A DNA stretch of 64,000 nucleotides from Gammaproteobacteria bacterium (lineage in GTDB: Bacteria > Pseudomonadota > Gammaproteobacteria > Steroidobacterales > PWYM01). Each line of letters begins with the position of its first letter. The stretch's first letter is position 1. A program made the translations under genes and the position numbers. The stretch lies in the NCBI GenBank assembly GCA_020832005.1, contig JAFIFN010000001.1, positions 9,775-73,774 of the forward strand, read 5' to 3'. Shown in pieces: positions 10,878 through 35,973 of this stretch. The notes under the pieces are model-generated. The model searched no databases. It worked only from the letters and a program-made list of their open reading frames with translations, and was not told where the DNA came from.

Positions 10878-11889
10878 CGCCGCCCTTGCCTCCTACCGCG
10901 ATCTCGCCTTCCTCTGACAGGCGTCTGACGATGCCCAGAATCTCCTTCTGTGCTGCCTCGACCTCCGAGACGCGGGTGGGGCCGCGCATCTCGAGGTCCT
11001 CCTGCAGACTTTCCGCGGCGCGCTTGGACATGTTGCGCAGGATCAGAGCCTTGATCTCCGCCGTGGCCCCCTTCAACGCAATCACCAGTTGATCGCTGGA
11101 GACCTCACGCAGCAGTCGCTGGATGCTGCGGTCATCGAGATCCAGCAGGTTTTCGAAGGTAAACATCAATTCCTGGATTCGCCCGCCGAGACTCTCGTCA
11201 GAGGCCTTGATGCTGTCGATAATGGCGGCCTCGGCCGAGGAATCCATCAGGTTGAGAATGTCCGCGGCACGCTTGAGGCCACCCACGACGCTGGTCTTGG
11301 ACGCAGAAGTGCCCGAGAACTGACGTTCGAGAATCTGGTCAAGTTCCTGCAACGCACTGGGATGAATGCTCTCCAGCGATGCGATCCGCATGATCACATC
11401 GCTGCGTATACGATCAGGGAGAAACCCCAATACTTCAGCCCCGTGATCACTGTCCAGATAGGACACGACAATAGCCATGATCTGCGGATGTTCATCGCGG
11501 ATCATGTCTGCCACCGCGCGGCCGTCCATCCACTTCAGCGATTCAAGACCACTGGAGTTACCGCCGACGAGGATGCGGTCGATCAGACTTCGCGCCCGGT
11601 CCTCTCCGAGTGCCTGATTCAGCACCTTTCGCAGGTATTCATCACTTCCCACACCGATCGGCGTCTGATCCTCCACCACCGCGGTGAACTCGGCCACCAC
11701 ACGCGAGAGCTGCGTACGACTGATTGCCGGCATCGCGGCCATCGCCGTACCGATACTCTGTACTTCCTTCGGGCCCAAGTGTTTGAGCACCGCCGAGGCA
11801 GTATCTTCGCCCAGGGTCATCAGGAAGATCGCAGCGCGATCCACGCCACTGATGACCGCCTGACCTGATGATTGCGCTTTACTTGCCAT
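10864..11889 (-). CDS. fliG: Flagellar motor switch protein FliG
   Basis: 341 aa. GVDRAAIFLMTLGEDTASAVLKHLGPKEVQ and C-terminal RLLREVSSDQLVIALKGA...RNMSKRAAESLQEDLE torque-helix region. Confidence 0.95.
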   Translation of the reverse strand: MASKAQSSGQAVISGVDRAAIFLMTLGEDTASAVLKHLGPKEVQSIGTAMAAMPAISRTQLSRVVAEFTAVVEDQTPIGVGSDEYLRKVLNQALGEDRARSLIDRILVGGNSSGLESLKWMDGRAVADMIRDEHPQIMAIVVSYLDSDHGAEVLGFLPDRIRSDVIMRIASLESIHPSALQELDQILERQFSGTSASKTSVVGGLKRAADILNLMDSSAEAAIIDSIKASDESLGGRIQELMFTFENLLDLDDRSIQRLLREVSSDQLVIALKGATAEIKALILRNMSKRAAESLQEDLEMRGPTRVSEVEAAQKEILGIVRRLSEEGEIAVGGKGGDDFV

Positions 11890-13558
11890 CCTGGTTCATC
11901 CATGTGCGTACGACCTGGGCCACCAGCCGCGGATCATCCGTGGCCACCTTTCGTACCCTGTTGAGTTCATCATCCAGCGAGCCACCGGCGCCTCCACGGT
12001 CAGACAGGCTCTGAAACTCATCCCCGGGCTGACCAAGCTGACCGGCTGCCCGGGCGCTCCCTGGCGGCTCCGGCAATCCGGGCGCGCCGCCCGCCATCGC
12101 AGGCATGGCTCGACCGGGCGCCGGCGCAGGAAGCTGCACGAGTTGTCGCAGCGTGGGCCGCAGCACCAGCAGGATCAGCAGCAACAGTCCCAGTGCAGCC
12201 ATGCCCTGGCGGGCGAGATCACGGATCCAGGGCTCCTCCCACAGGGGACGTGCTTCCAGCGCCTCGGGCTCGGCCACTTCACGAAACGAGGCATTGACGA
12301 CATTGATTCGGTCGCCGCGCGCCTCATTGAAGCCAACAGCCTCGCCGACCAGCGACTGCAGATAGGCCATTTCAGCCGCATCCCGGGGCAGACGCAGGCG
12401 TTCGCCACCCTCACCGCGGCCGATCCGGTCATCGACAACCACTGCAACAGAGATCCGTGACAGCGTGGCGGGTGCCTGGCGGATATGGCTGACCTCGCGG
12501 TCGACCTCGAAGTTTCGGGTGCTGCGCGAACTGCGTGAGGCCGGGTCGCCGGTGCGCTGTTCGTCGTTCATCAATCCCTGTGCCGGCATCACCACCGTGG
12601 CGGCACCAGGCGGCTGATTGGTCAGCGCTCCGGGCACACCCCCGGTTACCGGATTGCGACTCTCCTCCTCGCTGGTCTGCTCGCTGCGAAGCACGATGCG
12701 CTCAGGATCGAAGCTCTCGCGAGTGCTTTCGATCTGGGTAAAGTCGATGTCGGCGGTCACCTGCACGCGCATGCCGTCAGGCCCGACCAGCGGCGCGAGA
12801 ATATCCTCGATGCGCTCCCGATAGGCATCCTCAAGGCGACGGGTGTAGTCCAGGTGCTGCGCGGTCAGCCCTCCGGCTGCCGCACCGGCCATCTGGCTGA
12901 GCAACTGCCCACGCTGGTCGATGACAGTGACACGCTCGGCTTCGAGCTCAGGGACACTGGAAGCGACCAGGTGCACGATACCGGCGACCTGGGCGTCATC
13001 GAGCATGCGCCCGGGATGCAGGTGAACGATGACCGAGGCGCCCGGCTTGATGCGGTCGCGGACGAATACGGACTGTCGTGGCAGCGCCAGGTGTACGCGT
13101 GCCCGCTCAACGCTGTTCAGCGTCGTCACCGAGCGCGCAATCTCGCCTTCCAGCGCCCGCTGGTAGCGGGCCGTCTCGACCATCCGGCTGGTGCCGATGC
13201 CACTGTCCTGGTCGAGCAACTCGAAACCCACGCCATCGGCGCGCGGCAAGCCCTCTGTGGCCAGGTTCAGGCGCGCCTCGGCAACGCGTGTGGCCGGCAC
13301 CATCAGGGCACCACTGCGCGCATCGAGTCGATGCGGAATATTCTGCCGACTGAGCACCGTCACGGCCTGGGCGATGTCGCGCTCAGCCGCACCAGACAGC
13401 AGCACCTGGTAGCCGGGCCGCAGCCCCCACATCACCACGGTGACCGCAAGGGCAAGCACCACGGCCAGACCGAGCACCGTGCCGAACTGGCGTTGTGCCG
13501 GCAGTCGACCCAGGCCTGCAAACTGTTTACTGATCGTCCGGGGCAGATTGTCCGCCAT
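11879..13558 (-). CDS. fliF: Flagellar MS-ring protein FliF
   Basis: 559 aa. N-terminal TM, YscJ/FliF ring-building motifs (LATEGLPR..GFELLD) and a second TM near the C-terminus. Confidence 0.95.
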   Translation of the reverse strand: MADNLPRTISKQFAGLGRLPAQRQFGTVLGLAVVLALAVTVVMWGLRPGYQVLLSGAAERDIAQAVTVLSRQNIPHRLDARSGALMVPATRVAEARLNLATEGLPRADGVGFELLDQDSGIGTSRMVETARYQRALEGEIARSVTTLNSVERARVHLALPRQSVFVRDRIKPGASVIVHLHPGRMLDDAQVAGIVHLVASSVPELEAERVTVIDQRGQLLSQMAGAAAGGLTAQHLDYTRRLEDAYRERIEDILAPLVGPDGMRVQVTADIDFTQIESTRESFDPERIVLRSEQTSEEESRNPVTGGVPGALTNQPPGAATVVMPAQGLMNDEQRTGDPASRSSRSTRNFEVDREVSHIRQAPATLSRISVAVVVDDRIGRGEGGERLRLPRDAAEMAYLQSLVGEAVGFNEARGDRINVVNASFREVAEPEALEARPLWEEPWIRDLARQGMAALGLLLLILLVLRPTLRQLVQLPAPAPGRAMPAMAGGAPGLPEPPGSARAAGQLGQPGDEFQSLSDRGGAGGSLDDELNRVRKVATDDPRLVAQVVRTWMNQDGK

Positions 13559-14962: not shown

Positions 14963-14978
14963 AGCAAAACCCGTGCCA
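14963..14978 (-). promoter_or_regulatory. sigma54 -24/-12 promoter of the activator-fliEFGHIJ operon: TGGCAC-gggtt-TTGCT
   Basis: Reverse complement of agcaaaacccgtgcca, ~50 nt upstream of ATG 14914. An AT-rich block (14981-15030) lies just upstream and contains an IHF-like AATCAGTAAATAA. Confidence 0.8.
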
Positions 14979-17804: not shown

Positions 17805-17820
17805 AGCAAAATTCGTGCCA
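17805..17820 (-). promoter_or_regulatory. sigma54 -24/-12 promoter of the fliT-PilZ-like operon: TGGCAC-gaatt-TTGCT
   Basis: Reverse complement of agcaaaattcgtgcca, in the fliS-fliT gap ~85 nt upstream of ATG 17718. Confidence 0.8.
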
Positions 17821-20351: not shown

Positions 20352-21527
20352 TTAACGCAACAGGGCCAGCACGTTCTGCGGAGCAGCGTTGGCCTGGGCA
20401 AGCATGGCCACGCCAGCCTGCTGCAGCACCTGCGCCCGGGTCAGCGCCGCCGTCTCGGCAGCGAAATCCGTGTCGCGGATGCGGCTGCGTGAGGCGGCCA
20501 GGTTCTCGCTGTTGGTCTGCAGGTTGGCGATCACAGACTCGAAGCGATTCTGGATGGCACCCATCTGGGCGCGTACGCTGTTGATCTCGGTCAGGGCGGC
20601 ATCAGCAATCCCGAGCGCGCGCTGGGCACCACCGAAGGTCGAGATGTCGATATCACTGACGAACTGCTCATCGCCAGCAGCCGGGGCCACAAAGGTACCT
20701 GTCGCGCCGGTGGCGGCGAAGGTGATCGCGTCTTCACCGGCCTGGATGGAGCTGACGTCGATCCCGCCGGCAGCCGTGCCCGCCTCGGCAGATACGCCTG
20801 ACTGAGCGGAGACCGAGTTGATCGCACTGACGAGAGCGTCGCGCAGGGCGGCCTGTGTGGCAGCGGCGTCCGTGGTCACGGTGCCACCACCCGAGGTGGA
20901 CGTGATCGCGGTCACCGACACGTCGTCGACCGCAACACCGTTGACCGTGATCCCGGTCACCGAGGTCGCGCCCGAAGCTGCAACTGCGATGCTGCCGTTG
21001 GCAAACATGGCTTCGCCGAGCCGGTCGCCACGCGCGTCGGCATCGATCTCGACCGAGATCAGCTGACCGGCGTTGGCGCCGACCTGGAACGCAGCACCAG
21101 TGAACGAGCCGTCGAGCAGCCGGGTACCGTTGAACTCGGTCTGCTGGGCAACACGCGTGATCTCCTGGATCAGCTGCTGGGCTTCCGCATTCAGGGCAGC
21201 GCGGTCGCTGGCGGAGTTCGTGGCGTTGGAGGCCTGCACGGCCAACTCACGGATGCGCTGCAGGTTGTTGCCAACCTCGCCCAGTGCACCTTCAGCGGTC
21301 TGTGCCAGCGAAATGCCGTCGTTGGCGTTGCGCACGGCGACGTTCAGACCACGAATCTGCGTGGTGAAACGCTCAGAGATGGCGAGGCCTGCCGCGTCAT
21401 CCTTGGCGCTGTTGATACGCAGACCTGAGGACAGGCGCTGCAGAGAAACACCCAGCGCACTCTGCGAGGTGCTCAGGTTGCGCTGTGCGTTCAGCGACAG
21501 CACGTTGGTATTGATTACCTGTGACAT
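20352..21527 (-). CDS. fliC: Flagellin
   Basis: Start at ATG 21527 (MSQVINTNVLSLNAQRNL; AGGAG RBS). Conserved D0/D1 N- and C-termini (...AAETAALTRAQVLQQAGVAMLAQANAAPQNVLALLR). The central variable region is rich in S/T/A/G. The ORF-track start 21551 is rejected. Confidence 0.96.
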   Translation of the reverse strand: MSQVINTNVLSLNAQRNLSTSQSALGVSLQRLSSGLRINSAKDDAAGLAISERFTTQIRGLNVAVRNANDGISLAQTAEGALGEVGNNLQRIRELAVQASNATNSASDRAALNAEAQQLIQEITRVAQQTEFNGTRLLDGSFTGAAFQVGANAGQLISVEIDADARGDRLGEAMFANGSIAVAASGATSVTGITVNGVAVDDVSVTAITSTSGGGTVTTDAAATQAALRDALVSAINSVSAQSGVSAEAGTAAGGIDVSSIQAGEDAITFAATGATGTFVAPAAGDEQFVSDIDISTFGGAQRALGIADAALTEINSVRAQMGAIQNRFESVIANLQTNSENLAASRSRIRDTDFAAETAALTRAQVLQQAGVAMLAQANAAPQNVLALLR

Positions 21528-21633
21528 TTCCGTACTCCTGGTACTCGTCAAATTTACATTCAGTTGGCCGCCGCAAGAGGCGGGGTCTCATCCGGCGGCA
21601 TGAATGTGCCGGTTGCAAAATGCATATCGGCGC

Positions 21634-21660
21634 AGAGAGAGAGAACTTTAGGCACGCGCT
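21634..21660 (-). promoter_or_regulatory. sigma28 (FliA) promoter of fliC: TAAAGTT-N12-GCCGATAT
   Basis: Reverse complement of atatcggc gcagagagagagaac ttta, with the canonical TAAA-N15-GCCGATA spacing. Lies ~100 nt upstream of the fliC ATG. Confidence 0.85.
21644..21654. repeat. (GA)5A / T(CT)5 dinucleotide tract inside the fliC promoter spacer
   Basis: The sequence agagagagaga is read directly from the window and lies entirely between the -35 and -10 elements of the sigma28 promoter. Confidence 0.9.
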
Positions 21661-21765
21661 TCATACCCGTGCTGGCAACCCGCGGCTGCCGTGTATTCAC
21701 TGCTGTGACGCCGTGGATAACGTGAACTGCTTCACGAAATTGTTCGAGGGCCTGATCGCAGATCA

Positions 21766-23328
21766 TCAATGCGCGTCCGGCAGCATCGCCAGTATTCTTT
21801 GCCGGGCGCGCTCGAAGGCGTGCGCGAACAGTGGTGCCTGCGCCTGATAGGCGTCCGTGAGGCAACCGAATGCCGCGGTAACCTGAACTCTGGCCTCGTC
21901 GCTGCCCGCCATGCCGACCACCTCCGGACGCACGCTGCGCGCAGCGTCGTTGGCGCACATCGCATCCCAGTCCAGACCATGCACCTCAAGCATGCGCCGC
22001 ACACAGCTGTCAGGATCGGCCACCAGGTCTTCGTAGGACAGTACGCTCACGCGTTCGGGAAACAGCGCCTGCCAGTGCGCAGCCAGGCGCTCATACACAA
22101 GTATGTATTCGGCGATCAGGTCCACATCCCAGGCGTAGGGATGAGGCTGCTCGAAGTACTTCAGGTAGATGGCCAGCGCGTTGGCAAAGTGCTCACGGCG
22201 ACAGATCACCAGTCTTGTCTGAGGATTGAGCATCATGAGCATGCCGGCGTAGATGATGTTGCCAGGAGTCGTCACCAGATGAGTGACAACGCCCGGGGCG
22301 GGTGCCTCGCCCCATGCAGCCTCCAGCAGGGTTCCAAGCCGGTCCATCGCCATCGCATCGAGGTTGCGTAGCGAGTCGGGGTAGGCGGCCAGCAGTCCTT
22401 GGCCTGATTTGCGCAGCACCTCGTCGATGACATCGCGCTCGCCCCAGCCACGGATCGCCGGATGCGCCCCGAGCGCGCCTTCCAGCAGGCTCTTGCCGGC
22501 ACGCGGGGGGCCCAGCACCAGGGTGAGGCCCCTGTCTGATCGAGTCCGAACGCATCCGGCGGCGACGAATTCTGGCTGAAACACGTCGATGACACGCGTC
22601 GCGAGGCGAATCAGCAATCCACCGCGCAGGCGCTCGACCTCGGTGCGTTCATGTTCACACATCAAGCGGTTGCCTGCCTGACAGGCCTTGAACGAAGCAA
22701 GCGAATCCCCACCATCCTGGTACATCTTGCTCAATGCGAACTGCAACATTGCGCGCTCCCGAAGAGACAGCCGATCGCGCTGCAGCAGCTTGCGCAGCTG
22801 CTTGATCTGAGCCCCTGCGCCGGCGAAATGCCGGGTCTGCGAGTATCGAAGCCAAAGCTCGGCATCGTCGCGCCGCACGGCCAGCAGCGCCGCCAGAAAA
22901 GCACTCGCCTCCTCCATGCGTCCCAGCGCCCGCAGAGCCATTGCATACAGCCTCATCGCCTGCTGGCTCTCGGGGTTCAGCCGCATTGCCTCACGCAGCG
23001 CGGCGGCGGAAGCTTCGTAACGACCCAGTTCGTAGAACGTACTTCCGACCAGTTCGAATACGCCCGCATCGGCGTCCGGAAGACTGAGCAGCTGCGCGGC
23101 GTACTGCAGCGCCGTGTTGTGCATGCGCAGTTGCAGGGACAGCAGCGTCAGCGACGTCAGCGCCCCGCGATTCTGGGGGTCGCGCTCAAGCACCTGGCTC
23201 AACAACTCTACTGCATCGAGCTTGCGGTCCTCGTCAACAGCCTGGCTGGCTTCAGTGAGCAGGGAGCGAAGCTCTGATGCCGGTGCCGCTGCCGCTGCCG
23301 ACAGGCGTGGCCGGGTCGCCGCCATCAT
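21766..23328 (-). CDS. TPR-repeat / sulfotransferase-domain fusion protein (candidate flagellin-modifying enzyme)
   Basis: 520 aa. The N-terminal ~200 aa are TPR-like (AVELLSQVLERDPQNRGAL; YELGRYEASAAALREAMRLNPESQQA; LGRMEEASAFLAALLAVRRDDAE). The C-terminal half has a PAPS 5'-phosphosulfate-loop-like LVLGPPRAGKSLLEGALGAHP, then VICRREHFANALAIYLKYF and YEDLVADPDSCVRRMLEVHGLDWD, as in TPR-containing sulfotransferase families. The ATG overlaps the flgL stop (ATGA). Confidence 0.7.
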   Translation of the reverse strand: MMAATRPRLSAAAAAPASELRSLLTEASQAVDEDRKLDAVELLSQVLERDPQNRGALTSLTLLSLQLRMHNTALQYAAQLLSLPDADAGVFELVGSTFYELGRYEASAAALREAMRLNPESQQAMRLYAMALRALGRMEEASAFLAALLAVRRDDAELWLRYSQTRHFAGAGAQIKQLRKLLQRDRLSLRERAMLQFALSKMYQDGGDSLASFKACQAGNRLMCEHERTEVERLRGGLLIRLATRVIDVFQPEFVAAGCVRTRSDRGLTLVLGPPRAGKSLLEGALGAHPAIRGWGERDVIDEVLRKSGQGLLAAYPDSLRNLDAMAMDRLGTLLEAAWGEAPAPGVVTHLVTTPGNIIYAGMLMMLNPQTRLVICRREHFANALAIYLKYFEQPHPYAWDVDLIAEYILVYERLAAHWQALFPERVSVLSYEDLVADPDSCVRRMLEVHGLDWDAMCANDAARSVRPEVVGMAGSDEARVQVTAAFGCLTDAYQAQAPLFAHAFERARQRILAMLPDAH

Positions 23329-24521
23329 CGAATGAAGTCGAACAGGCTGAGCCTGCCCAGCTGTACGTAGGTCTGTTGCGCAGCCTGCAGGGCCACCTGC
23401 TGGAGGTTGAAGCGGCTAATGGCTTCGGCATAGTCGAGATCCTGGATCTGCGAGAGCGCCGTCTGCAACTGCAGTTTCTGGTCCTCGTTGACCACGCCCT
23501 GGCTGTCGATCGTGTTGAGCCTGGCGCCCACGTCGGTGCGCAGTGCCAGCACGCGACCCAGGGCCTGGTCGATGTTCTGCAGGCCCGCGGCGATGGACTG
23601 ATCCCGCAGCGTGTTGCCCGCCGCGGAACTCCTGGGGGTTTCCAGCTCCGCCGCCAGGGCATCCACGATCGCAAACACGGAGGTCACACCGGCAGGTTCA
23701 ATGGCGAAACTGTCGCCGGCTGCAGGCGCGCCCGCGAGCACGATGCGCCGCCCGGCGTAATCGATCGCCTGGTCGGGCTGGTAGGCACCGCTGGCGACGA
23801 CGACCCCGCTGCCGTCGCGCAGCTGCCAGGCCTCCGCAGAGGTGAACTCGAGATTCAGTGCAGTATTGTCGATCAGCGTGGGATTGAGCACTTCACCGGC
23901 GGCCACGCGGCCGGTGCCCGAATTGCCCGTGTCCGGGGTCACCGTGAACACGCCATTGCCGCGTGGGATGCTCATCCACGCCTGCCCACTTTCGCCAACG
24001 GCGACGCTTCGATCGGGCGACAGGGCCACCCGACGCTGGCCACCATCCCCCAGATAGGCTACTGCCCCACCGGCGTCGCGCACGAACGGCCGGCTGCCGG
24101 AGCGGTAACCGGCAAACATGTACTCGCCGCTGGCATCGCGCGCATTGGCGCCATCGAGCAGCCCCTCGGCGAGCTGACGCACCTCCAGCGCGAGGGCTGC
24201 GCGAGACTCGTTGTTCTGGGTGCCGTTGGCCGCCTGAAGCGTAAGCTCACGCACCCTCTGCAAAGCTTCGCCCATCTGCGTGAGCACCGATTCCTGCTGC
24301 TGAAGACGGCTGACGGCCGCATCTGCGTTGCGGGAATATTGGTCGACTGCGGCGATTCTCTCACCAAGCTTCAGCGACTGGATCGCACCACCCGGGTCAT
24401 CCGAGGGCTTGAGGATGCGCTTGCCCGTGGCCAGCTGCTGCTGGGTCGCCGCCAGCGACGCCTGGTTGCGCTGAATCGCGCCGATGCCGCCGTCGAAAAT
24501 CTGTGCCGTTGAAATTCGCAT
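23325..24521 (-). CDS. flgL: Hook-filament junction protein FlgL (HAP3)
   Basis: 398 aa. MRISTAQIFDGGIGAIQRNQASLAATQQQLATGKRILKPSDDP and a flagellin-like C-terminus. Confidence 0.93.
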   Translation of the reverse strand: MRISTAQIFDGGIGAIQRNQASLAATQQQLATGKRILKPSDDPGGAIQSLKLGERIAAVDQYSRNADAAVSRLQQQESVLTQMGEALQRVRELTLQAANGTQNNESRAALALEVRQLAEGLLDGANARDASGEYMFAGYRSGSRPFVRDAGGAVAYLGDGGQRRVALSPDRSVAVGESGQAWMSIPRGNGVFTVTPDTGNSGTGRVAAGEVLNPTLIDNTALNLEFTSAEAWQLRDGSGVVVASGAYQPDQAIDYAGRRIVLAGAPAAGDSFAIEPAGVTSVFAIVDALAAELETPRSSAAGNTLRDQSIAAGLQNIDQALGRVLALRTDVGARLNTIDSQGVVNEDQKLQLQTALSQIQDLDYAEAISRFNLQQVALQAAQQTYVQLGRLSLFDFIR

Positions 24522-24558: not shown

Positions 24559-26451
24559 TTAGCGCCGGACGGCCGCGAGCAGCGTGTCAAACATTGAACC
24601 TGCCACCGCGATGACCTGGGCACTGGCCTGGTAGGCCTGCTGGAAACGCAGCAGGTTCGCGGCCTCCTCGTCGAGGTTGACGCCCGAGATGTTCTCGCGC
24701 TGGGCGCGAGCATCAGCGAGCATTCGTCCCTGCACCTCTGCGTTGATCGAGGCACGCCGTGTCTTTACGCCGACATCGGCCACCAGTTCCGCATAGCCCT
24801 CGGAGAGGCTTGTTGTGCCGCCGGCCAGGGTGCGCTGCCTGGCCAGGCCTGCCAGCGCCAGGGCGCCGCGGTTATCGCCGACACCGCCGGCATTGTCGCG
24901 AACCTCGAAGCGATCACCCTCTGCGGGTGTCCCCCGAATCACCGTGCGCCAGCCATTGAGCTCGATGGTGGTGTCGCCAGACGGATCCGGAGAGAAACTC
25001 GTTCCGCCGACCACGAACTGCCCGCCGGTAAACTCGATATCGATGGGGTTGCGCAGGTCCGCGGCAGCGGGATCGACAATGCTGATCTCCCGCAGGCTCG
25101 CCGCACCGGTGTTCTGGGCCGCCGCCTCAGCGCGCACGGGCAATGCTGCGGCAACCGCCCTGGGATCGGTGATGCGCACGCTCAGATCGCCCGCCACCTG
25201 CAGGGGGCGCAACAGGAAGCTGTCCCCGCGTTGCGCGCCGCTCACGCCCGAGAGATCCAGACTCAGACCATCGAAATCCAGGCTGTCGCCTGGAGCCAGG
25301 GTAGCCAGACGCTCGCCATCTGCCAGCCTGCGCAGCACCCAGTTGTCGCCATCGAAGCGCAGCTGGTAGTCGCTGGCCTCCAGCGCACCGACATCGCTGA
25401 TGGCCAGATCCGGAATACCGCTGGCCACGTTGCCGAGGTTGGCATACACGCGCGGATCGGGACGCTCGAAAAATGCGCCACCGGCCAGACCTCGAAGATC
25501 CATGCCTGCGGCGTGCTGCTCGTTGAAACTGTCGACCAGCGACACGGCAATACGGCCAAGCCCGTTGCTGGCCGGGTCGAACAGGGTATCGCGAAGATCC
25601 AGCAGTGCGCCGAGCTCCCCGCCAGTCATGAACTCGGTGGCAATCACCGTGGCCGAACCGTTGCGAAACCCGATATCCAGTCGGCCCGGATCCGCGCCCA
25701 TCGCCTGGGCAAACAGCCGCGTTTGCTCGAAGCCCACCACAAGGGCCTGGCCCCGACCGATATAGATGTTGACGCTGCCATCGGACTGCTCAAGAGTCTT
25801 GACCGAGGTCAGTGATGACAGATCGCGAATCAGCTCGTCGCGGCGATCCAGCAGGTCATTGGGATCGCGCCCGCCGCTGCGCCCCCGTGCCTCGACGATC
25901 TCGCGGTTGAGCTGCGCGATGCTCGTGGCCAGCTGGTTGATCTCGTCTACGGTCCCGCTGATGCGACCATTGGCAATGCTGCGTTGGTCCTCAATGCGGC
26001 CTTCCAGCTGAGCGAAGCGATCGGTCAGCGACTGCGCCTGGCTGATCAGCTGCTGGCGGGCGGCCGTCGAGGTCGGATCGGTGGCGACGTCCTCAAGCGC
26101 TGCGAAGAACTGACTCAGTGCCGGCGCGAGCCCGGAGTTCGGATCGGCCAGCAGCGTGTCGAGCCGGCCGGCGAACTCCGCGTAGGTGCGCTCGTAGCCT
26201 GCACCCGACAGATTCATGCCCAGGCGCGCCTCGACGAATTGATCGACGACGCGGCGCACACCAGTGGTGGTCACACCCGTACCCAGAGAGCCGAAGCCGG
26301 AGTTCAGCGGCTGCGAGGTGCCCAACTGCAGCTGCTGGCGGCTGTAGCCTTCCGTGCCAACATTGGCGATGTTGTGCCCGGTGACCTGCAGGGCGCGCTG
26401 ATACGCCAGCAACGCCGAAGTGCCGACACCGAAAATGCCGCCTCCGCTCAT
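24559..26451 (-). CDS. flgK: Hook-filament junction protein FlgK (HAP1)
   Basis: 630 aa. N-terminal GVGTSALLAYQRALQVTGHNIANVGTEGYSRQ and C-terminal VNLDEEAANLLRFQQAYQASAQVIAVAGSMFDTLL. Confidence 0.95.
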   Translation of the reverse strand: MSGGGIFGVGTSALLAYQRALQVTGHNIANVGTEGYSRQQLQLGTSQPLNSGFGSLGTGVTTTGVRRVVDQFVEARLGMNLSGAGYERTYAEFAGRLDTLLADPNSGLAPALSQFFAALEDVATDPTSTAARQQLISQAQSLTDRFAQLEGRIEDQRSIANGRISGTVDEINQLATSIAQLNREIVEARGRSGGRDPNDLLDRRDELIRDLSSLTSVKTLEQSDGSVNIYIGRGQALVVGFEQTRLFAQAMGADPGRLDIGFRNGSATVIATEFMTGGELGALLDLRDTLFDPASNGLGRIAVSLVDSFNEQHAAGMDLRGLAGGAFFERPDPRVYANLGNVASGIPDLAISDVGALEASDYQLRFDGDNWVLRRLADGERLATLAPGDSLDFDGLSLDLSGVSGAQRGDSFLLRPLQVAGDLSVRITDPRAVAAALPVRAEAAAQNTGAASLREISIVDPAAADLRNPIDIEFTGGQFVVGGTSFSPDPSGDTTIELNGWRTVIRGTPAEGDRFEVRDNAGGVGDNRGALALAGLARQRTLAGGTTSLSEGYAELVADVGVKTRRASINAEVQGRMLADARAQRENISGVNLDEEAANLLRFQQAYQASAQVIAVAGSMFDTLLAAVRR

Positions 26452-27506
26452 CTCTCATCTCCCGCGGCCGCGCGCACATGCGCAACCTGTGCTGATGGTG
26501 GGTTGTCGGCCGCGGGCGTGTGAACTTGATCACGCGGTGAGCTCGCCGTGTTGGCCGCGCTGCTCGATGTCTCGCGCGAGCGCACCGGCACCCCCGGCAG
26601 TCCCCGCTCGACGATCGACATGATCTTGGCGGCATACTCGGGATCCGTGGCCCAACCGCCCTTCTGCAGGCCGCGGGCATAGTCAGCACTGGTGCTGGCC
26701 TCCCGCGCCGGTGCATAACGTGGCCGGTTCTCGATGATCTGTACGTAATCGTCGAAGCTCTCGGCGATGCTGGCGTAGACGCGAAACGGCTCACGGCGAC
26801 GCTCGGGCACGCCATTAATGAACTCCAGCGTCGAGACGCTGGCCTGCCTGCCCTGCCACCCGCCTGTCGCCTTGATGCCGAAGAGATTGTGTGAGGGGCG
26901 GCCGGTCGCATCGGTGATCATGTGCTGACCCCAGCCGGTCTCAAGCGCGGCCTGCGCGACCAGCACATCCGGCGGCACGCCAAGCCGTTGCGCCGCCCGA
27001 CGCGCGTGCGGCCACAGGGCAGAAACGAAAGCCTCCGGCGTCTCGGGCGCAAAGCGCTGAGCGGTCGTACGGGCGAGCGGATTTACGCTTGGGCCTGCTT
27101 CGGGCTGTCGATAGCTTGCCGCCTCGGGGAGCGCCGAGGCGTGATCGCCGCGCAGGCGCACCGGTCCCATCGGCGATACTGGCCGTGCGGTCTGGCCATC
27201 ATCGCCCCCGAGCTGGCGCAGAATCGAGTCGGCCAGGCCGATACCACGGCCCCGCGACAGCGTCAGCGACATCTGCTGGTCGAGCATATCCTCGTGAAAG
27301 CGCATACGCTCGCGATCCACCAGGCCGCCATCGATGACCGAGGAAGCATCACGCATCTGCTTGAGCATCTGGTTGAGAAACAGCGCCTCGAACTGCTGCG
27401 CCACGGCACGGCGCGCCTCGGGCGTATCATTGGCGGCCTCGCGACGCAGCGAGGCCATGCCCTGCAGGTCGGTAAAGGTGAAGGCCGCGTCGATACCAGC
27501 GCTCAT
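26448..27506 (-). CDS. flgJ: Flagellar rod assembly protein / peptidoglycan hydrolase FlgJ
   Basis: 352 aa. N-terminal rod-binding domain (AVAQQFEALFLNQMLKQMRDA) and a C-terminal glucosaminidase domain (AQAALETGWGQ...NLFGIKA...). Ends in a ~60-aa Ser/Pro/Ala-rich tail. Confidence 0.92.
   Translation of the reverse strand: MSAGIDAAFTFTDLQGMASLRREAANDTPEARRAVAQQFEALFLNQMLKQMRDASSVIDGGLVDRERMRFHEDMLDQQMSLTLSRGRGIGLADSILRQLGGDDGQTARPVSPMGPVRLRGDHASALPEAASYRQPEAGPSVNPLARTTAQRFAPETPEAFVSALWPHARRAAQRLGVPPDVLVAQAALETGWGQHMITDATGRPSHNLFGIKATGGWQGRQASVSTLEFINGVPERRREPFRVYASIAESFDDYVQIIENRPRYAPAREASTSADYARGLQKGGWATDPEYAAKIMSIVERGLPGVPVRSRETSSSAANTASSPRDQVHTPAADNPPSAQVAHVRAAAGDER
26503..26529 (-). promoter_or_regulatory. 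sigma28 promoter of the flgK-flgL-sulfotransferase operon: TCAAGTT-N12-GCCGACAA
   Basis: Reverse complement of ttgtcggc-N15-ttga, inside the flgJ 3' end ~52 nt upstream of the flgK ATG. One mismatch in the -10. Confidence 0.7.
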
Positions 27507-28686: not shown

Positions 28687-29418
28687 CTAGAAGGGCCAGG
28701 CCGGACTGTTGAAGAAACGTGTCAGCCAGCCCGGCGAGCTGCTGTCGGCGACCGTGCCGGTACCACCATAGGCCAGCTGGGCGTCGGCCACCTGAGTGGA
28801 GAACACGCTGTTGTCGGCACGGATATCCACGGGGCGTACGATGCCGCGCAGACGGATGTACTCCTGCCCCTGATTGATGCGCATCCACTTCTCACCCTGG
28901 ACCCGCAGGTTGCCATTGGGCAGCACCTCGGCCACGGTCACCGTGATCGAGCCTTCCAGCAGATTGCTCTGTGCCGCATCGCCCTGGCCATCGAACGAGC
29001 GCGAACCCCCGATCTCGGTGTCCAGCAGCGGTACACCGTCGCGCGTCACCGGCCGCCCGGCGATGGTCGGATTGAGCAGTCGCACACTGCTTTCCTTTGC
29101 CGTGGACGCGCCGGCAGATTTGCGCGCATTGGTCCGCTCGGCGAGCAGCACCGTCAGCACATCGCCCACGCGCCGCGCCTTGTAATCCTGGAACAGGCTC
29201 TGCGAGGAGGCGGCATGAAAGATCGCACCCTGGTTGTCGCGCGGCGAGACCGCCTCGACCGGCGGCGTTGCCGTGAAGCGCTCGTCGCCACCCTTGTAGT
29301 TGACCGGCGCGCCCGCGCAGGCAGCCAGTCCGAGGCTGGCCAGCAGCGGCAACAGGCACCGTCCGCCTGTCTGCAGGCCCACGCGCATCTGGCCGAACCC
29401 CTGATCTGATGTGGTCAT
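28687..29418 (-). CDS. flgH: Flagellar L-ring lipoprotein FlgH
   Basis: Lipobox LASLGLAAC. Conserved [17 protein letters not shown] and [16 protein letters not shown] blocks. Confidence 0.95.
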
Positions 29419-29453
29419 CGTGAAATCACTCCTGGCGGCGACTGCTGCGCGCC

Positions 29454-30245
29454 TCAGCGGCCGAGATTGTTGTTCGCGAACTGCAGCATCTGGTCGGCTG
29501 TCGAGATCGCCTTCGAGTTGATCTCGTAGGCGCGCTGCGTCTCGATCATGTTCACGAGCTCCTCGACGGTATTGACGTTGGAGCTCTCAAGCATGCCCTG
29601 CATCAGGGTGCCCAGACCGGTCAGCCCGGGCGTGCCGACCTGCGGTGCCCCGCTGGCTGCAGTCTCCACCAGCAGGTTGCCGCCGATGGCCTGCAGACCG
29701 GCAGGATTGACGAAGTCCGCAAGCTGGATCGCGCCGATTTCCTCGGGCACCGGGTTGCCCGGCACGGCCGCGGTGATGATGCCGTCCTGGCTGATGCTCA
29801 CCGACAGGGCGTTGTCGGGAACGACGATGCCGGGCTGCAATTCGAAGCCACTGGCCGTGACCACCTGACCGTCGCGGTTGACCTGCAGCGCGCCATCACG
29901 CGAGTAGGCCAGCGAGCCGTCAGGCATGAGGATCTGCAGAAAACCGCGACCCTGTACGGCGACATCGAGCGCATTGTCGGTCTGGATCAGGTTGCCCTGG
30001 GAATAGATTTTTTCGGTTGCCACGGTGCGCACACCGGTGCCGAGCATCAGGCCCGACGGCAACTGCGTGTCCTGCGAGGACTGCGCACCCGGCTGGCGGA
30101 TGTTCTGGTAGACCAGGTCCTCGAACACAGCACGGCCCTTCTTGAAGCCGCTGGTGTTGACGTTGGCCAGATTGTTGGAAATGACCGACATGCGCGTCTG
30201 CTGCGCGTCCAGTCCGGTCTTGGCGATCCACAGTGCCTGATTCAT
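29454..30245 (-). CDS. flgG: Distal rod protein FlgG
   Basis: 263 aa. [32 protein letters not shown] and C-terminal [29 protein letters not shown]. Confidence 0.96.
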
Positions 30246-30283
30246 GACTCAATCCTCTATTTCGGGCGTAGTGCCGCGACTCA

Positions 30284-31027
30284 TCAGCCCAGACGCATCA
30301 GAGCGCTGGAACTGCGATCGTTCTGCTCGGCGGTATTCATCATCTTGACCTGCAGCTCGAAGCTGCGGGCGTGCTGGATCATCTCGACCATCGCGCCAAT
30401 GACGCTGACATTGCTGCCCTCGAGCATGCCGCCAACCAGGCGGACATCAGCCTCCGGCGGCGGTGCTTCGCCATCGGCCACGCGTATCAGTCCGTCTTCG
30501 CCGCGACGCAGCGTCTGCGGCTCGGGATTGACCAGGCGGATACGCTCCACCACGGCCAGGCCCGCAGCATCCTGGCCCAGGGGTCGGATGCTGATCGTGC
30601 CGTCGCCTGCAATCTCGAGCGCCTCGTACGGCGGCAGGGCGATCGGGCCACCATTGCCCATCACCGGCAGACCTGTCCCCGTGGTCAGCATGCCGAAGGC
30701 ATCGACCCGCAGGTCGCCGGCTCGCGTGTAGGCCTCGCCGCCATCGGGCGCCTGCACGGCGATCCAGCCCTCGCCCTCGACGGCCACATCGAGTTCCCGG
30801 CCGGTGGCCATCAGTGCCCCGGGCGTGAAGTCGATGCCGCGCCCTGCGGTCACCGAGTAGGTGCGCGCACTGGCATGTCCGGGCCCGGCCAGCGGCACCT
30901 CTGCCGCGCCGGCCAGTGTCGAGCGAAAGCCCGTCGTGGAGGCGTTGGCAAGATTCTGGCTGGTCACCGATTGCGCCACCTGTGCCTCGCGGGCACCGGT
31001 CATCGCAACATAGAGCAGTCTGTCCAT
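30284..31027 (-). CDS. flgF: Proximal rod protein FlgF
   Basis: 247 aa. MDRLLYVAMTGA...NLANASTTGFR and C-terminal LEGSNVSVIGAMVEMIQHARSFE. Confidence 0.93.
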   Translation of the reverse strand: MDRLLYVAMTGAREAQVAQSVTSQNLANASTTGFRSTLAGAAEVPLAGPGHASARTYSVTAGRGIDFTPGALMATGRELDVAVEGEGWIAVQAPDGGEAYTRAGDLRVDAFGMLTTGTGLPVMGNGGPIALPPYEALEIAGDGTISIRPLGQDAAGLAVVERIRLVNPEPQTLRRGEDGLIRVADGEAPPPEADVRLVGGMLEGSNVSVIGAMVEMIQHARSFELQVKMMNTAEQNDRSSSALMRLG

Positions 31028-31043
31028 GGCTTAAGCGTTTCCG

Positions 31044-32261
31044 TCAGCGGATATTGATGATGGTCTGGGTGACCGAGTCGGCCGTGCTGATCACCTGGGC
31101 ATTGGCCTGGAAGTTGCGCTGTGCGGTGATCAGGTTGACCAGCTGGGCTGCGATATCGACGTTCGAGGCTTCCAGTCCGCCCGACTGCAGCGTGCCCAGG
31201 TCCCCATTGCCCGCCACCCCGAAGATCGGGTCGCCGGCGCCGAAGGTCTCGACCCAGGCGTTGTCACCTGCCTGCTGCAGACCTTGCGGATTGGAGAAGT
31301 TGGCCACGGCAATCTGACCCAGTGGCGAGCTCTGGCCATTGGTGTAGCGCGCGAACACCACGCCGCTGCCGTCGATATCGATGCCGGTGAGGCGGCCGCT
31401 GGCAAAACCGTCCTGCCGAAGGGCCGCGACGTTGTCGCTTGTGCCGAACTGGGTTGCATTCGACAGATCGAACTCGATATTCATCGCCGCGGCGCCGTTG
31501 GAGGGCGTGAAACCGCCGAAACTCACTGGCGTGGCCGGTGCGACCAGGGCACCGTCAGCTCCGAATTCCAGCGCCTGCGGGCCGCCGACCGCCTGACCAT
31601 CGATCGCCAGGTGCGCATCCCAGTTCAGCGAGCCGGTATTGCGGAAGAACAGCGTCGCCACGTGCGACTGTCCCAGCGAGTCGTAGACCGTCAGCGAAGT
31701 CGAGAATGAGTAGCTGTTCGGATCCGTCGCATCGAAAGTCACCGCCGAGAGATCTTCCGGGTTCGAGCGCAGATTGAATGTGGCCTCGACCTGGCTGGTC
31801 GCGCGCGGTGCGGATTCGGTGGTTGCCAGGCGCAGATCGCCGATGTTGCCGGTATTGAAGGTCCCTGCCAGCGGGTCCTGGACCGGATAGGCCTGCAGGC
31901 GCTTGCCCCCGGTGTTGACGACGAATCCATCGCGATCGACCTGGAAGGATCCGTCGCGCGTGTAGCTGCGGCCGCCGCCATCGGCGAGTACGAAAAAGCC
32001 CTTGCCCGACAGCGCCATGTCCAGATTGCTGCCGGTGAAGTCGATGTTGCCCTGCGAGAACTGTTGCGTCACCGCGGCCAGACGCGTGCCGGTCCCGATG
32101 GCCGTGCGACTCACACCGCCGTAGGCGGTGGCGAAAATGTCGGAGAACTCTGCGCGCGATTGCTTGAATCCGGTGGTCCCGGAGTTCGCGATATTGTTCC
32201 CGGTGACACGCAGATCCGCGGAGGCTGCATTGAGTCCGCTCAGTGCTGTACGAAATGGCAT
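31044..32261 (-). CDS. flgE: Flagellar hook protein FlgE
   Basis: 405 aa. ALSGLNAASADLRVTGNNIANSGTTGFK and C-terminal LEASNVDIAAQLVNLITAQRNFQANAQVI. Confidence 0.95.
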   Translation of the reverse strand: MPFRTALSGLNAASADLRVTGNNIANSGTTGFKQSRAEFSDIFATAYGGVSRTAIGTGTRLAAVTQQFSQGNIDFTGSNLDMALSGKGFFVLADGGGRSYTRDGSFQVDRDGFVVNTGGKRLQAYPVQDPLAGTFNTGNIGDLRLATTESAPRATSQVEATFNLRSNPEDLSAVTFDATDPNSYSFSTSLTVYDSLGQSHVATLFFRNTGSLNWDAHLAIDGQAVGGPQALEFGADGALVAPATPVSFGGFTPSNGAAAMNIEFDLSNATQFGTSDNVAALRQDGFASGRLTGIDIDGSGVVFARYTNGQSSPLGQIAVANFSNPQGLQQAGDNAWVETFGAGDPIFGVAGNGDLGTLQSGGLEASNVDIAAQLVNLITAQRNFQANAQVISTADSVTQTIINIR

Positions 32262-32277
32262 GTGATTACTCCTGCAA

Positions 32278-32952
32278 TCAGTTGGCTATGCCGCGCACGC
32301 GGCTGAAATCGACGACGCCCAGGCCGGTTACGGTCAGGGACAAACTGCCCTGCCGGCCACCCAGCGCCACACTCTCGACGCGTCCGGACACCAGGGCATC
32401 GAGCGCCACGGCGCTGCCTGCCTGGGTGCCGGTGGCACGCAGTTCGTAGAATCCCGGATCGGCCCGCCCGCCGTTGGAGAGTTGACCGTCCCATCTGAAG
32501 GGCACCTGTCCGCCGGCGGCAGAATCCACCGGCAGGGAGGTCACCAGGCGTCCGCTGAGATCGTAGACGCCGAGCGTGACGCCATTGACGCCCTGGGGAA
32601 TATCCACCGCGCCGGCCAGACTGCCCTCGGGCGGCAACCAGCCCTCACGGGCCGGCACCAGCACCTGGCGATCCACCAGACCTGCGGCCTGCAGCGTCTG
32701 GTTGCCGGCAATCGTGCCCGCCAGCGACTCGAAGGACTTGCGCATGTCCTCGATACCCGAAACGGTGCCGAACTGCGCCAGCTGGCCGAGGAACTCGCCG
32801 CTTTCCATCGGTGCGAACGGGTCCTGGTTGCGCAGCTGCGTGATCATCAGCCGCATGAAGTCCTCCTGGCCAAGCCGGTCACGCGGCTTGTCCGAGGGCT
32901 TGGCTGCGAGGCCGAGCTGGCTGAGTGCGTTGCTGTCGATATTATTGGCCAT
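32278..32952 (-). CDS. flgD: Hook capping/assembly protein FlgD
   Basis: 224 aa. LGQEDFMRLMITQLRNQDPFAPM motif and a C-terminal FlgD Ig-like domain. Confidence 0.93.
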   Translation of the reverse strand: MANNIDSNALSQLGLAAKPSDKPRDRLGQEDFMRLMITQLRNQDPFAPMESGEFLGQLAQFGTVSGIEDMRKSFESLAGTIAGNQTLQAAGLVDRQVLVPAREGWLPPEGSLAGAVDIPQGVNGVTLGVYDLSGRLVTSLPVDSAAGGQVPFRWDGQLSNGGRADPGFYELRATGTQAGSAVALDALVSGRVESVALGGRQGSLSLTVTGLGVVDFSRVRGIAN

Positions 32953-33371
32953 CAGCGCTGACCCAGCTGCAGTGTGCGCAGCATCAACTGCTTGACGGTA
33001 TTCATCATCTCGACGTTGTTCTGGTAATTGCGCGAGGCCGACATCATGTTCGCCATCTCCTCGACCATATTGACGGCCGGGAAGAACACGTAGCCTTCCT
33101 CATTGGCGAGGGGATGACCCGGCATGTACTCCATGCGCGGCGGCGACGAACTCTCGGCGATGCCGGTCACCCGCACGCCGGCACCGGCGGCAGGCCCGCC
33201 GCCCTGCTGGGCCATCATCGCCGCGAATACCGGCTGCTTGGCCCGATAGACGCCTTCGGCCGTCGCACTGGCCACCTCTGCGTTGGCCATGTTGCTGGCC
33301 ACCGTGTTGAGACGCACAGACTGGGCGCTGAGCGCCGAGCCGGACATGTCGAATACCTTGAACAGACTCAT
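32952..33371 (-). CDS. flgC: Proximal rod protein FlgC
   Basis: 139 aa. MSLFKVFDMSGSALSAQSVRLNTVASNMANA...NMVEEMANMMSASRNYQNN. Confidence 0.95.
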   Translation of the reverse strand: MSLFKVFDMSGSALSAQSVRLNTVASNMANAEVASATAEGVYRAKQPVFAAMMAQQGGGPAAGAGVRVTGIAESSSPPRMEYMPGHPLANEEGYVFFPAVNMVEEMANMMSASRNYQNNVEMMNTVKQLMLRTLQLGQR

Positions 33372-33403
33372 GTTGTCTTCTCCATCAGGTCCGGGCGTAT
33401 GCC

Positions 33404-33802
33404 CTATTCGCCGCGCAGCGCCTTGCGCAGGCCTTCAACTCTGGCACCCAGGAAATCCAGGCTCGCCTGGTAGCGCACGGCGGCCTCACCAAAGGCCGCC
33501 TGCTCCATCTGCATATCGACGGTGTTGCCATCCAGCGAGGGATGATTGGGCATCCGGTACATCGACTCGGGCGCCGCACCGGTCTGCGCAGCCGAAATGT
33601 GTCCGCGCTGCGTGGCACGCAGTCTGCCGGCATCACCTTCGTTAACAGCCGCCTGCAGCGCACTGCGAAAATCAATGTCACGCGCCTTGAAGCCTGGCGT
33701 ATCGGCGTTGGCCATATTGCCGGCCAGCACTTCCAGACGCCTGGCGCTGACGGCCAGTGCCTGGGGATGTATGCCCAGCGCTGCATCGATCATCTTGTTC
33801 AT
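33404..33802 (-). CDS. flgB: Proximal rod protein FlgB
   Basis: Start at ATG 33802 (MNKMIDAALG; GGGAG RBS), giving 132 aa with LAGNMANADTPGFKARDIDF. The 199-aa ORF-track version would run through its own sigma54 promoter. Confidence 0.93.
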   Translation of the reverse strand: MNKMIDAALGIHPQALAVSARRLEVLAGNMANADTPGFKARDIDFRSALQAAVNEGDAGRLRATQRGHISAAQTGAAPESMYRMPNHPSLDGNTVDMQMEQAAFGEAAVRYQASLDFLGARVEGLRKALRGE

Positions 33803-33838
33803 GCGGCCTGCTCCCGGATGCTCTGTCGCAGGAAGCAA

Positions 33839-33854
33839 TGCAAGCGTCATGCCA
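33839..33854 (-). promoter_or_regulatory. sigma54 -24/-12 promoter of the flgBCDE... operon: TGGCAT-gacgc-TTGCA
   Basis: Reverse complement of tgcaagcgtcatgcca, ~40-50 nt upstream of ATG 33802. Confidence 0.7.
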
Positions 33855-33993: not shown

Positions 33994-33999
33994 GCCAAA

Positions 34000-35914: not shown

Positions 35915-35973
35915 TCCCTGCACAACCTGGACTCAAGGTCGATCAGACCAGCACACCAACAAGAGAAACGGCG

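Follow-up and report, generated by a model that had tools for sequence, protein, structure and literature searches.

A TPR-sulfotransferase encoded between flgL and fliC is a candidate flagellin-modifying enzyme in a small set of sulfur bacteria from soda lakes

We analyzed a stretch of 64,000 nucleotides (nt) of contig JAFIFN010000001.1 from a gammaproteobacterial assembly (GCA_020832005.1), referred to below as the window, in which a gene for a predicted TPR-sulfotransferase (tetratricopeptide repeats fused to a sulfotransferase; hereafter ST) is encoded within a polar-flagellum cluster. The ST gene occupies positions 21766..23328 of the minus strand and encodes 520 amino acids (aa), as described in the initial annotation of this DNA. 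Upstream of it are flgL (23325..24521, minus strand), encoding the hook-filament junction protein, and flgK (24559..26451, minus strand), with which the unit flgK-flgL-ST starts; flgJ (26448-27506) is on the same strand as the ST gene. Downstream is fliC (20352..21527, minus strand), which encodes the single flagellin, a protein of 391 aa with no Tyr and one Lys that is the putative substrate. The order of genes on this strand is flgJ, flgK, flgL, ST, fliC, flaG, fliD and fliS. The stop codon of flgL and the ATG of ST overlap as ATGA, and the translational coupling proposed for the two genes is borne out by this overlap. The true start of fliC is the ATG at 21527 (MSQVINTN), and the spacer between the ST stop codon and fliC is 238 nt. 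Public gene calls place an open reading frame (ORF) of 68 aa at 21560-21766 on the minus strand. Its start overlaps the ST stop, it has no Pfam match and it extends over the 5′ leader and the sigma28 promoter of fliC, and it is probably an artefact of the gene caller.

The interval between flgL and fliC usually holds glycan-related genes, and flagellin O-glycosylation is widespread. We found neither sugar-nucleotide nor sulfate-activation genes among the scanned ORFs of the window, that is, all except those at 2774-7134, 10864-13558 and 28687-34003, which are fli/flg genes by position, and one of 1160 aa at 53816-57298. The sole cytidylyltransferase among the scanned ORFs is kdsB-like and adjoins lpxK. 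Within this scope, the description of the locus as a flagellin-modification slot devoid of sugar-nucleotide genes was correct, and the search for glycosyltransferase and sugar-nucleotide genes was also negative in the fetched flanks of the related loci.

A sigma28 search pattern (TAAAGTTT-N11-GCCGATAA, with at most three mismatches) matched the window five times, vs 0.05 matches expected. One of these sites (TCAAGTTC-N11-GCCGACAA; 26503..26529, minus strand) is within the 3′ end of flgJ, 52-78 nt before flgK, and its distance from flgK is the same in four of the related loci (L001, L003, L010 and L014; L and P numbers denote loci and proteins of our homologue collection). Another (TAAAGTTC-N11-GCCGATAT; 21624..21650, minus strand) is the fliC box, located 116-142 nt past the ST stop codon. 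Both boxes are found at the same positions in orthologous loci. Pattern match and conservation thus agree with the sigma28 element that the initial annotation had placed ahead of flgK-flgL-ST, and the separate fliC promoter that it had placed downstream of the ST stop was also recovered. The other three matches precede cheV, flgM and a gene for a methyl-accepting chemotaxis protein (MCP), and judged by its sequences the five-site pattern resembles a genuine FliA regulon. No sigma54 box was found before flgK, though perfect ones exist elsewhere in the cluster, and between flgL and ST there was no terminator-like, sigma70-like or promoter-like site. Start-stop overlaps of flgL and ST (ATGA or GTGA) were found in three lineages, represented by the window, L001 and L058.

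The ST protein is composed of a TPR-like helical domain (22555..23289, minus strand; aa ~14-258, about 15 helices), assigned by Pfam TPR matches, AlphaFold2 (AF2) and Foldseek, and a sulfotransferase-fold domain (21769..22533, minus strand; aa 266-520), assigned by Pfam Sulfotransfer_3, a PDB search and Foldseek. The hidden Markov model (HMM) search that had been suggested for this ORF gave significant matches to both. Sulfotransfer_3 matched aa 271-455 along profile positions 4-215 of 216 (E 4.1e-21, 76.7 bits vs a cut-off of 27), and TPR_19 (E 4.3e-11), together with TPR_8, TPR_16 and others, matched aa ~60-165. There was also a weak match to NCBIfam SctY (E 7.5e-8), under the family cut-off. 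Structure prediction, which had been suggested as well, resulted in a confident AF2 model built from 24 homologues (mean pLDDT 91.7, pTM 0.89), in which about 15 helices (aa 11-258) are followed by an alpha/beta domain of the sulfotransferase fold, and the P-loop is made of a strand (268-272), a loop (273-278) and a helix (279-287). When the catalytic domain was compared with the PDB by Foldseek, human TPST2, human TPST1 and tick TPST were on top, all with probability 1.00, followed by Mycobacterium tuberculosis Stf1 and the CurM sulfotransferase, while for the N-terminal half the matches were consensus-TPR (CTPR) proteins together with the arrays of TPRs in OGT and SPY (SPINDLY). In a PDB-sequence profile search with the catalytic domain alone TPST2 and TPST1 were the best matches (E 5.5e-5). 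No kinase was found among the Pfam, NCBIfam, PDB-sequence or listed top-50 Foldseek matches. The fusion of TPRs with a sulfotransferase domain therefore holds both at the HMM level and by fold. No signal peptide or transmembrane helix was seen in the 520-aa sequence, the N-terminus is hydrophilic and the first 13 residues are disordered in the AF2 model; the protein is predicted to be cytoplasmic. We infer that the TPR array may be a docking module for a flagellar protein.

The three sulfotransferase motifs quoted in the initial annotation are all present in ST. LVLGPPRAGKSLLEGALGAHP is the 5′-PSB (5′-phosphosulfate-binding) loop, VICRREHFANALAIYLKYF is the 3′-phosphate-binding (3′-PB) segment, in which Ala replaces the canonical Ser, and YEDLVADPDSCVRRMLEVHGLDWD aligns with a 26-residue stretch of TPST2 in the PDB-sequence profile search. 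The deviation from Ser to Ala had been recognized correctly, but the extent of the departure was understated, as the Lys equivalent to K158 of TPST2 is also gone and there is a Walker-A-type Lys in the P-loop. The catalytic residues of TPST2 are R78, E99, K158 and S285 (PMC5562738, PMC10951654), and we mapped TPST2 residues onto ST by alignments of bacterial relatives and the strand order of the AF2 model. R78 is kept as Arg276, within the P-loop or 5′-PSB loop GPPRAGKS (22489..22512, minus strand; aa 273-280), where Lys279 takes the Walker-A position that is Thr or Ser in canonical enzymes. The catalytic base E99 is kept as Glu297 (codon 22438..22440, minus strand), which is invariant in all aligned relatives. 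In the segment of aa 353-386 (22171..22272, minus strand), TTPGN is found for the canonical DKxPxN, with T353/T354 at the position of K158 and the Lys lost; the 3′-PB sequence there is RREHFANALA, in which Arg378 (R183 of TPST2) is kept and Ala386 replaces Ser (S191 of TPST2). An hhalign comparison of the subfamily with the single TPST2 sequence reached 94% probability, but in the middle of the domain it placed CRRDPF on CNKDPF, one structural element off, and this register was rejected.

In a 17-member alignment of the subfamily, covering five subclades at 36-76% identity, R276, K279, E283, H289, E297, R378 and R480 are invariant. All 16 of 16 aligned subfamily members have Ala at position 386 in place of the 3′-PB Ser, while P0097 has Val, and at the K158 position every subfamily member has TTPGN, TNPxN or TMPNN. 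The differences from generic TPR-sulfotransferases recur along the active site. The generic P-loop G[MFL]PR[SAC]G[TS][TS]L is G[PA][PS]R[SAV]GK[ST]L in the flagellar subfamily, a perfect match to Walker A (GxxxxGK[ST]); the strand that follows helix 1 has TTPGN, TNPxN or TMPNN, without Lys, in place of DKxPxN; in the 3′-PB motif A[LM]AI replaces the Ser of RDPxDxxxS; and the C-terminal TASxxQVR is VGxxGSxxxR. Among all the sulfotransferase domains that we collected, each of the 33 with a P-loop Lys lacks the Lys of DKxP and has Thr instead (33/33), while 210 of the 255 domains with Thr or Ser in the P-loop have DK. The same swap between Lys and Thr was found in 12 TPR-sulfotransferases that do not belong to the flagellar subfamily (P0015, P0020, P0131, P0143, P0155, P0156, P0182, P0186, P0187, P0200, P0208 and P0216). 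They combine a GK[ST] P-loop with DTxP or NTxP for DKxP, and the 3′-PB Ser is kept in only some of them. The swap thus seems to represent an alternative layout of the active site that recurs within Sulfotransfer_3.

The ratio of nonsynonymous to synonymous substitution rates (dN/dS) of the ST gene is 0.11-0.15, a sign of purifying selection, and across the 17 members 47 of 262 positions are invariant in the catalytic domain vs 20 in the TPR domain, the latter including R112, E113, R116, Y128, W159, R166, K201, D205 and N220. These values and the invariant pocket residues are consistent with relocation of the catalytic Lys within one active site rather than decay, which is how we interpret the alignments. 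Pseudogenization of the active site was ruled out by the dN/dS values, the invariant pocket and the recurrence of the compensatory swap.

The homologues of ST fall into a close group, with 36-76% identity to the window protein, and a remote group of generic TPR-sulfotransferases, with at most 32% identity. The close group includes an identical protein in a gammaproteobacterial metagenome-assembled genome (MAG), the soda-lake-type MAGs PLM2.Bin7, DLM2.Bin61 and JTS-RE254, and the cultured Thioalkalivibrio sp. ARh3, ALgr3, ALJ1 and ALJT. In a representative library of 1.84 billion proteins, 11,194 proteins matched the subfamily profile at E <= 1e-30, and only about eight representatives belong to the close group as full-length, single-domain proteins. 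A scan of GTDB representatives yielded three uncultured MAGs only, and a metagenome scan gave generic relatives only, which served as the control set. Several relatives are giant proteins with tandem TPR-sulfotransferase units, among them P0095 (2492 aa), P0108 (2653 aa) and P0100 (1769 aa); in P0095 there are 13 matched stretches and four or more canonical P-loops.

In every subfamily locus with readable surroundings fliC is directly downstream of the ST gene, in at least four subclades and two upstream contexts. The window shares the order flgL, ST, fliC with L001/L002, L003/L004, L005-L007, L010, L014 and L058, the last from a more distant lineage with an FlgL of 326 aa, a flagellin of 492 aa and a GTGA overlap, and the contig of L009 holds the downstream flagellin only. 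In Thioalkalivibrio sp. ALJ1 (L056) the genes upstream of ST are for cobalamin biosynthesis and a Yip1-family protein and flgL is not adjacent, but the gene 137 nt downstream of ST begins with MSQIINTNVLSLNAQRNL and encodes flagellin. As ALJ1 has fliC but not flgL next to ST, the invariant partner is fliC, and the coupling to flgL was ruled out as the defining linkage. Of the placement between flgL and fliC given in the initial annotation, the link to fliC thus stands and the role of flgL as a conserved partner does not. In L014 the orthologue (L014:9417-10990, on a JGI contig) is split by a frameshift between the domains, near ...LRKLLRRPG / LRDRAQLQFAMAK..., into a TPR ORF and an ST ORF; this may reflect an assembly error or a pseudogene, and the context is still flgL, [TPR|ST], fliC. 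As a control we used 38 generic TPR-sulfotransferase loci, three examined by gene table and 35 from the metagenome scan, and in the flanks that were fetched none of the 38 gave a match to FliC, FlgL, FlgK or FliD. This excluded the view that all TPR-sulfotransferases are flagellar, and it answers the survey of the architecture near flagellin genes that had been proposed, with fliC adjacency in all readable subfamily loci vs 0/38 generic loci.

A comparison of two loci, L010 (MAG DLM2.Bin61) and L005, which come from essentially the same organism, suggests that ST and flagellin change together. In flgL and its upstream flank the nucleotide identity is 97-100%, with a synonymous divergence (dS) of 0.064 and an FlgL protein that is 100% identical. 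From about 45 nt into the ST gene and through its 3′ spacer the identity drops to 56-79% (dS 1.42), and the encoded proteins are 74% identical in the TPR domain and 69% in the catalytic domain. The promoter and 5′ end of fliC are again 87-95% identical, its central region only about 50% in nucleotides and 45% in amino acids, and its 3′ end 88-95%. By this pattern ST and the surface region of fliC behave as a cassette. The ST gene and the surface part of flagellin look like one hypervariable unit that has been exchanged between near-identical chromosomes, which argues that the specificity of ST may be tied to the variable face of flagellin. A similar pattern is known for pseudomonads, where it concerns the flagellin type together with the glycosylation island. 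The first ~17 residues of ST (MGQPARQLNGASPQDRV) are near-identical among alleles that are otherwise 60-75% identical (P0003-P0007), and the break in identity between L010 and L005 comes just after this start, which may represent a recombination flank or a constraint of the coupling to flgL.

The composition of the flagellins bears on the acceptor. The complete flagellins of the window, L001, L010 and L014 and the partial ones of L005 and L056 contain no Tyr. The L058 flagellin (L058:11911-13389) is the only linked flagellin with Tyr (two residues), one of them in an acidic context of the variable domain, TADDYDSVQG, a TPST-like acceptor motif missing from the other linked flagellins. Ser, Thr, Ala and Gly are abundant in the central flagellin domain (32 Ser+Thr in 160 residues), and the residue counts bear out what had been noted of this region by eye. 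Tyr residues are present in FlgL, FlgK and FliD (8, 9 and 4, respectively), some of them following Asp or Glu. With the exception of L058, the Tyr-free flagellins rule out tyrosine sulfation of flagellin as the conserved function, and if flagellin is the substrate, the acceptor would be Ser/Thr or a glycan. In full-text literature searches, nothing relevant was returned on sulfated flagellin or on sulfotransferases of flagellar loci.

Taken at the level of fold and linkage, ST is well supported as a flagellin-linked modifying enzyme with a sulfotransferase fold, while sulfation of flagellin, on Ser/Thr or on a glycan, is only plausible. We regard it as probable that ST is a modifying enzyme dedicated to the flagellum. 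That the transferred group is sulfate is close to an even call, leaning slightly to the negative, and that the acceptor is a Ser or Thr of the protein rather than a glycan is a tentative proposal that we would not expect to hold. The reading that we prefer is of a cytoplasmic, flagellin-dedicated enzyme that transfers a sulfuryl group from PAPS (3′-phosphoadenosine-5′-phosphosulfate) and is exchanged together with the flagellin surface domain, and we give it an even chance. According to this reading ST would be made together with the hook-associated proteins, from the sigma28 promoter before flgK, with read-through from flgB-J as a probable additional source, and would be coupled to flgL. Before export, its TPR array would capture new flagellin that is unfolded or free of chaperone, in the manner of the FlmG TPR domain, and the sulfotransferase-fold domain would move the sulfuryl group from PAPS onto a hydroxyl (of Ser/Thr or of an attached sugar) in the central flagellin domain. 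Arg276 and Lys279 may hold the phosphosulfate, with Glu297 as the base as in TPSTs, and the Lys of the neighbouring strand (K158 of TPST2) would have shifted into the P-loop as Lys279. Strains would exchange the enzyme along with the flagellin surface domain, the two forming a matched cassette that diversifies rapidly. A bolder version, which we consider doubtful, is that this is the first bacterial flagellin sulfation system, with direct sulfate esters on Ser/Thr formed before export, a relocated Lys, and allele-matched cassettes under a diversifying selection that would be exerted in soda lakes by, for instance, flagellotropic phages or grazers.

Several observations weigh against sulfation by an enzyme dedicated to flagellin. 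The K158-equivalent Lys and the 3′-PB Ser are absent from their usual positions, and the counterpart of the catalytic S285 of TPST2 is ambiguous, as it maps to G475 with S476 adjacent to it. In P0097 (509 aa) the P-loop is GPPGSGKS, with Gly for the catalytic Arg, which is a classical NTPase Walker A, and the match to Walker A may leave room for a nucleotide other than PAPS; with no such Arg in P0097, the donor nucleotide may have changed. Conserved synteny is confined to a narrow clade (FlgK is 75-92% identical), so the synteny is partly inherited rather than independently maintained, and the cassette pattern, though clear, rests on one pair of strains. We know of no precedent for direct O-sulfation of Ser/Thr in a bacterial protein, and in the scanned window ORFs and fetched flanks there is no nearby glycosyltransferase that would supply a glycan acceptor.

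These points lead to other explanations of the locus. ST could sulfate a glycan attached to flagellin, with the glycosyltransferase and the sugar pathway encoded elsewhere in the genome. The usual content of the flgL-fliC slot, the wide occurrence of flagellin O-glycosylation and the Ser/Thr-rich central domain would all suit this, and most characterized bacterial sulfotransferases target carbohydrates or lipids. The glycans of Clostridioides difficile flagellin even bear a sulfur oxyanion, as sulfonates (PMC5207245). Yet the 64-kb window and the fetched flanks, the parts of these genomes that were seen, yielded no gene for a glycosyltransferase or for sugar-nucleotide synthesis, and the TPR fusion and TPST-like fold suggest a protein substrate, so that we consider this explanation unlikely. 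A sulfotransferase fold re-tooled for another donor, either ATP (making ST a flagellin kinase) or adenosine-5′-phosphosulfate (APS), would account for the P-loop GPPRAGKS, which fits the Walker A GxxxxGK[ST] and is conserved as G..[RG].GK[ST] (GPPGSGKS in P0097), and for the 3′-PB position, where Ala is found in all 16 aligned subfamily members and Val in P0097. The P-loops of sulfotransferases and nucleotide kinases are homologous, and many sulfur oxidizers assimilate sulfate via APS. All significant HMM and fold matches are nevertheless to sulfotransferases and none to kinases, and Arg378 of the 3′-PB, the C-terminal Arg480 and the Glu base typical of sulfotransferases are all invariant. The gain of the P-loop Lys covaries with the loss of the canonical one, which looks like relocation within the same chemistry, and several relatives with GK[ST] retain the 3′-PB Ser. 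We therefore hold a changed donor to be rather improbable.

Another late export protein (FlgL, FlgK or FliD) might be the substrate, possibly on Tyr. The closest solved relatives of ST are tyrosine sulfotransferases, the flagellins lack the Tyr that these three proteins have (8, 9 and 4 residues), and in several lineages there is translational coupling between flgL and ST. In ALJ1, however, ST stays with fliC where the link to flgL is broken, and in the L010/L005 pair ST diverges together with the flagellin surface domain while FlgL is 100% identical; the acidic Tyr motifs of FlgL are in the conserved helical termini, which would be buried on assembly. There is little to recommend such a substrate, and we think just as little of the idea that ST is a non-catalytic flagellin binder, i.e., a TPR chaperone or regulator built on a dead sulfotransferase fold. 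TPR proteins do act as type III secretion chaperones, and the weak SctY match (E 7.5e-8, below the cut-off), the missing Lys and Ser and the missing catalytic Arg of P0097 could be read this way. A dead fold is hard to reconcile with a pocket (R276, K279, E283, H289, E297, R378 and R480) that is invariant over five subclades, with more invariant positions in the catalytic than in the TPR domain (47 vs 20) at a dN/dS of 0.11-0.15, and with a compensatory Lys/Thr swap that recurs in other TPR-sulfotransferases; moreover, the cluster already encodes FliS and an FlgN-like chaperone. Finally, ST could be an ordinary TPR-sulfotransferase that acts on lipopolysaccharide or exopolysaccharide and is found in the flagellar cluster by chance, as TPR-sulfotransferases of the generic kind abound (11,194 representatives at E <= 1e-30) and are scattered over genomes. 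The adjacency to fliC in every subfamily locus seen, the absence of flagellar matches at all 38 generic loci and the sigma28-driven operon make such a coincidence highly improbable.

Known systems provide partial parallels to the enzyme that we propose. Glycosylation, methylation and phosphorylation are known modifications of flagellins. In Pseudomonas aeruginosa and P. syringae flagellin glycosylation islands are located between flgL and fliC; they occupy the same slot as ST and, like it, are variable, allele-matched partners of the flagellin type, but they consist of glycosyltransferases and sugar-modifying enzymes, whereas the ST locus has one gene of the sulfotransferase fold. FlmG of Caulobacter crescentus is similar in having an N-terminal TPR domain and a C-terminal transferase domain, in being cytoplasmic and in its genetic link to flagellin. 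It differs in being a GT-B glycosyltransferase that uses CMP-pseudaminic acid, whereas ST has the sulfotransferase fold and no sugar pathway nearby. Flagellin binding by FlmG requires its TPR domain, which is also sufficient for it (PMC7591256), and FlmG was thus accurately cited in the initial annotation as precedent for a TPR adaptor. Since its catalytic domain is not GT-B, ST appears to be an analogue of FlmG and not a member of its family. Human and tick TPST1/TPST2 (PDB 3AP1, 5WRI, 8W5Z) are the best solved matches of ST in sequence and fold, and share with it the 5′-PSB Arg, the catalytic Glu, the 3′-PB Arg and a C-terminal YE.LV..P motif. However, they are type II membrane proteins of the Golgi, and ST is cytoplasmic and TPR-fused, with a presumed substrate free of Tyr; it also lacks the Lys at the K158 position, has a Lys in the P-loop instead, and has Ala for the 3′-PB Ser. 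By HMM and fold ST is a member of the Sulfotransfer_3/TPST-like superfamily, one that lacks a canonical feature, the K158-equivalent Lys, and half of another, the 3′-PB motif, in which the Ser is missing.

The only bacterial protein sulfotransferase in the literature that we searched is RaxST, which modifies tyrosine. RaxST of Xanthomonas oryzae, the reference for bacterial protein sulfotransferases, is described as the first prokaryotic tyrosine sulfotransferase to be characterized biochemically and depends on PAPS (PMC4892823); its substrates are RaxX and Omp1X, and flagellar motility is unaffected in a raxST mutant (PMC4646787, PMC4892823). Unlike ST, it has no TPR domain and is encoded in the raxX-raxSTAB locus rather than in a flagellar cluster. 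The generic TPR-sulfotransferases, called TPR-containing sulfotransferase family proteins in NCBI and UniRef, share with ST the architecture and the Pfam family (22-32% identity), but the members examined have the motifs GxPRSG[TS][TS], DKxPxN and RDPxDxxxS and are not near flagellar genes. To our knowledge, none of them has an assigned substrate. The nearest chemical precedent, in that a sulfur oxyanion is found on a bacterial flagellin, is the C. difficile type B flagellin with its sulfonated peptidylamido-glycans (PMC5207245). These, however, carry a C-S sulfonate on a glycan-linked peptide and come from another pathway; no sulfate ester of sulfotransferase origin is involved.

Several further features of the window were recorded. 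Apart from the polar-flagellum cluster, in which FliS and the FlgN-like chaperone are encoded, it contains msbA-like, exbBD, comEC, lolCDE-like, nagZ, kdsB and lpxK genes. A flgM-like gene (35974-36267) and an flgN-like gene (36268-36708), both on the plus strand, are located behind a sigma28 box at 35888-35914, and another sigma28 box (36752-36778) precedes the MCP gene (36769-37971), and the gene after this one encodes a YcgR-type PilZ protein; an ORF of 214 aa that runs in the opposite direction (35902-36546) is spurious. Five perfect sigma54 boxes (TGGCAC-N5-TTGCW) were found within the flagellar cluster, at 7169-7184, 8321-8336, 14963-14978 and 17805-17820 on the minus strand and at 35035-35050 on the plus strand, for example ahead of the gene for a fleR-like activator and ahead of flgA. 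They fit a Pseudomonas/Vibrio-type hierarchy with FleQ/sigma54 and FliA/sigma28. The total of sigma54 matches with up to two mismatches is at chance level (41 vs 40.7). Four ORFs of the plus strand (79-1617, 38745-39326, 39346-40530 and 58484-59992) have a coding-like G+C content at third codon positions and no Pfam match at E <= 1e-5; two of the four are located between the YcgR-like gene and motB.

We propose that ST is a credible candidate for carrying out a new chemical modification of the flagellum in a few sulfur bacteria of soda lakes. If the flagellin is indeed sulfated, this would be a new post-translational chemistry for the flagellum and would change the surface of the filament with a single gene, adding strong charge in a way visible to phage and predators. 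It would also be the first assignment of a substrate within the bacterial TPR-sulfotransferase family of more than 11,000 clusters, and the Lys/Thr swap raises a structure-function point that can be tested throughout the sulfotransferase superfamily. The orthologues in cultured Thioalkalivibrio make the hypothesis directly testable.

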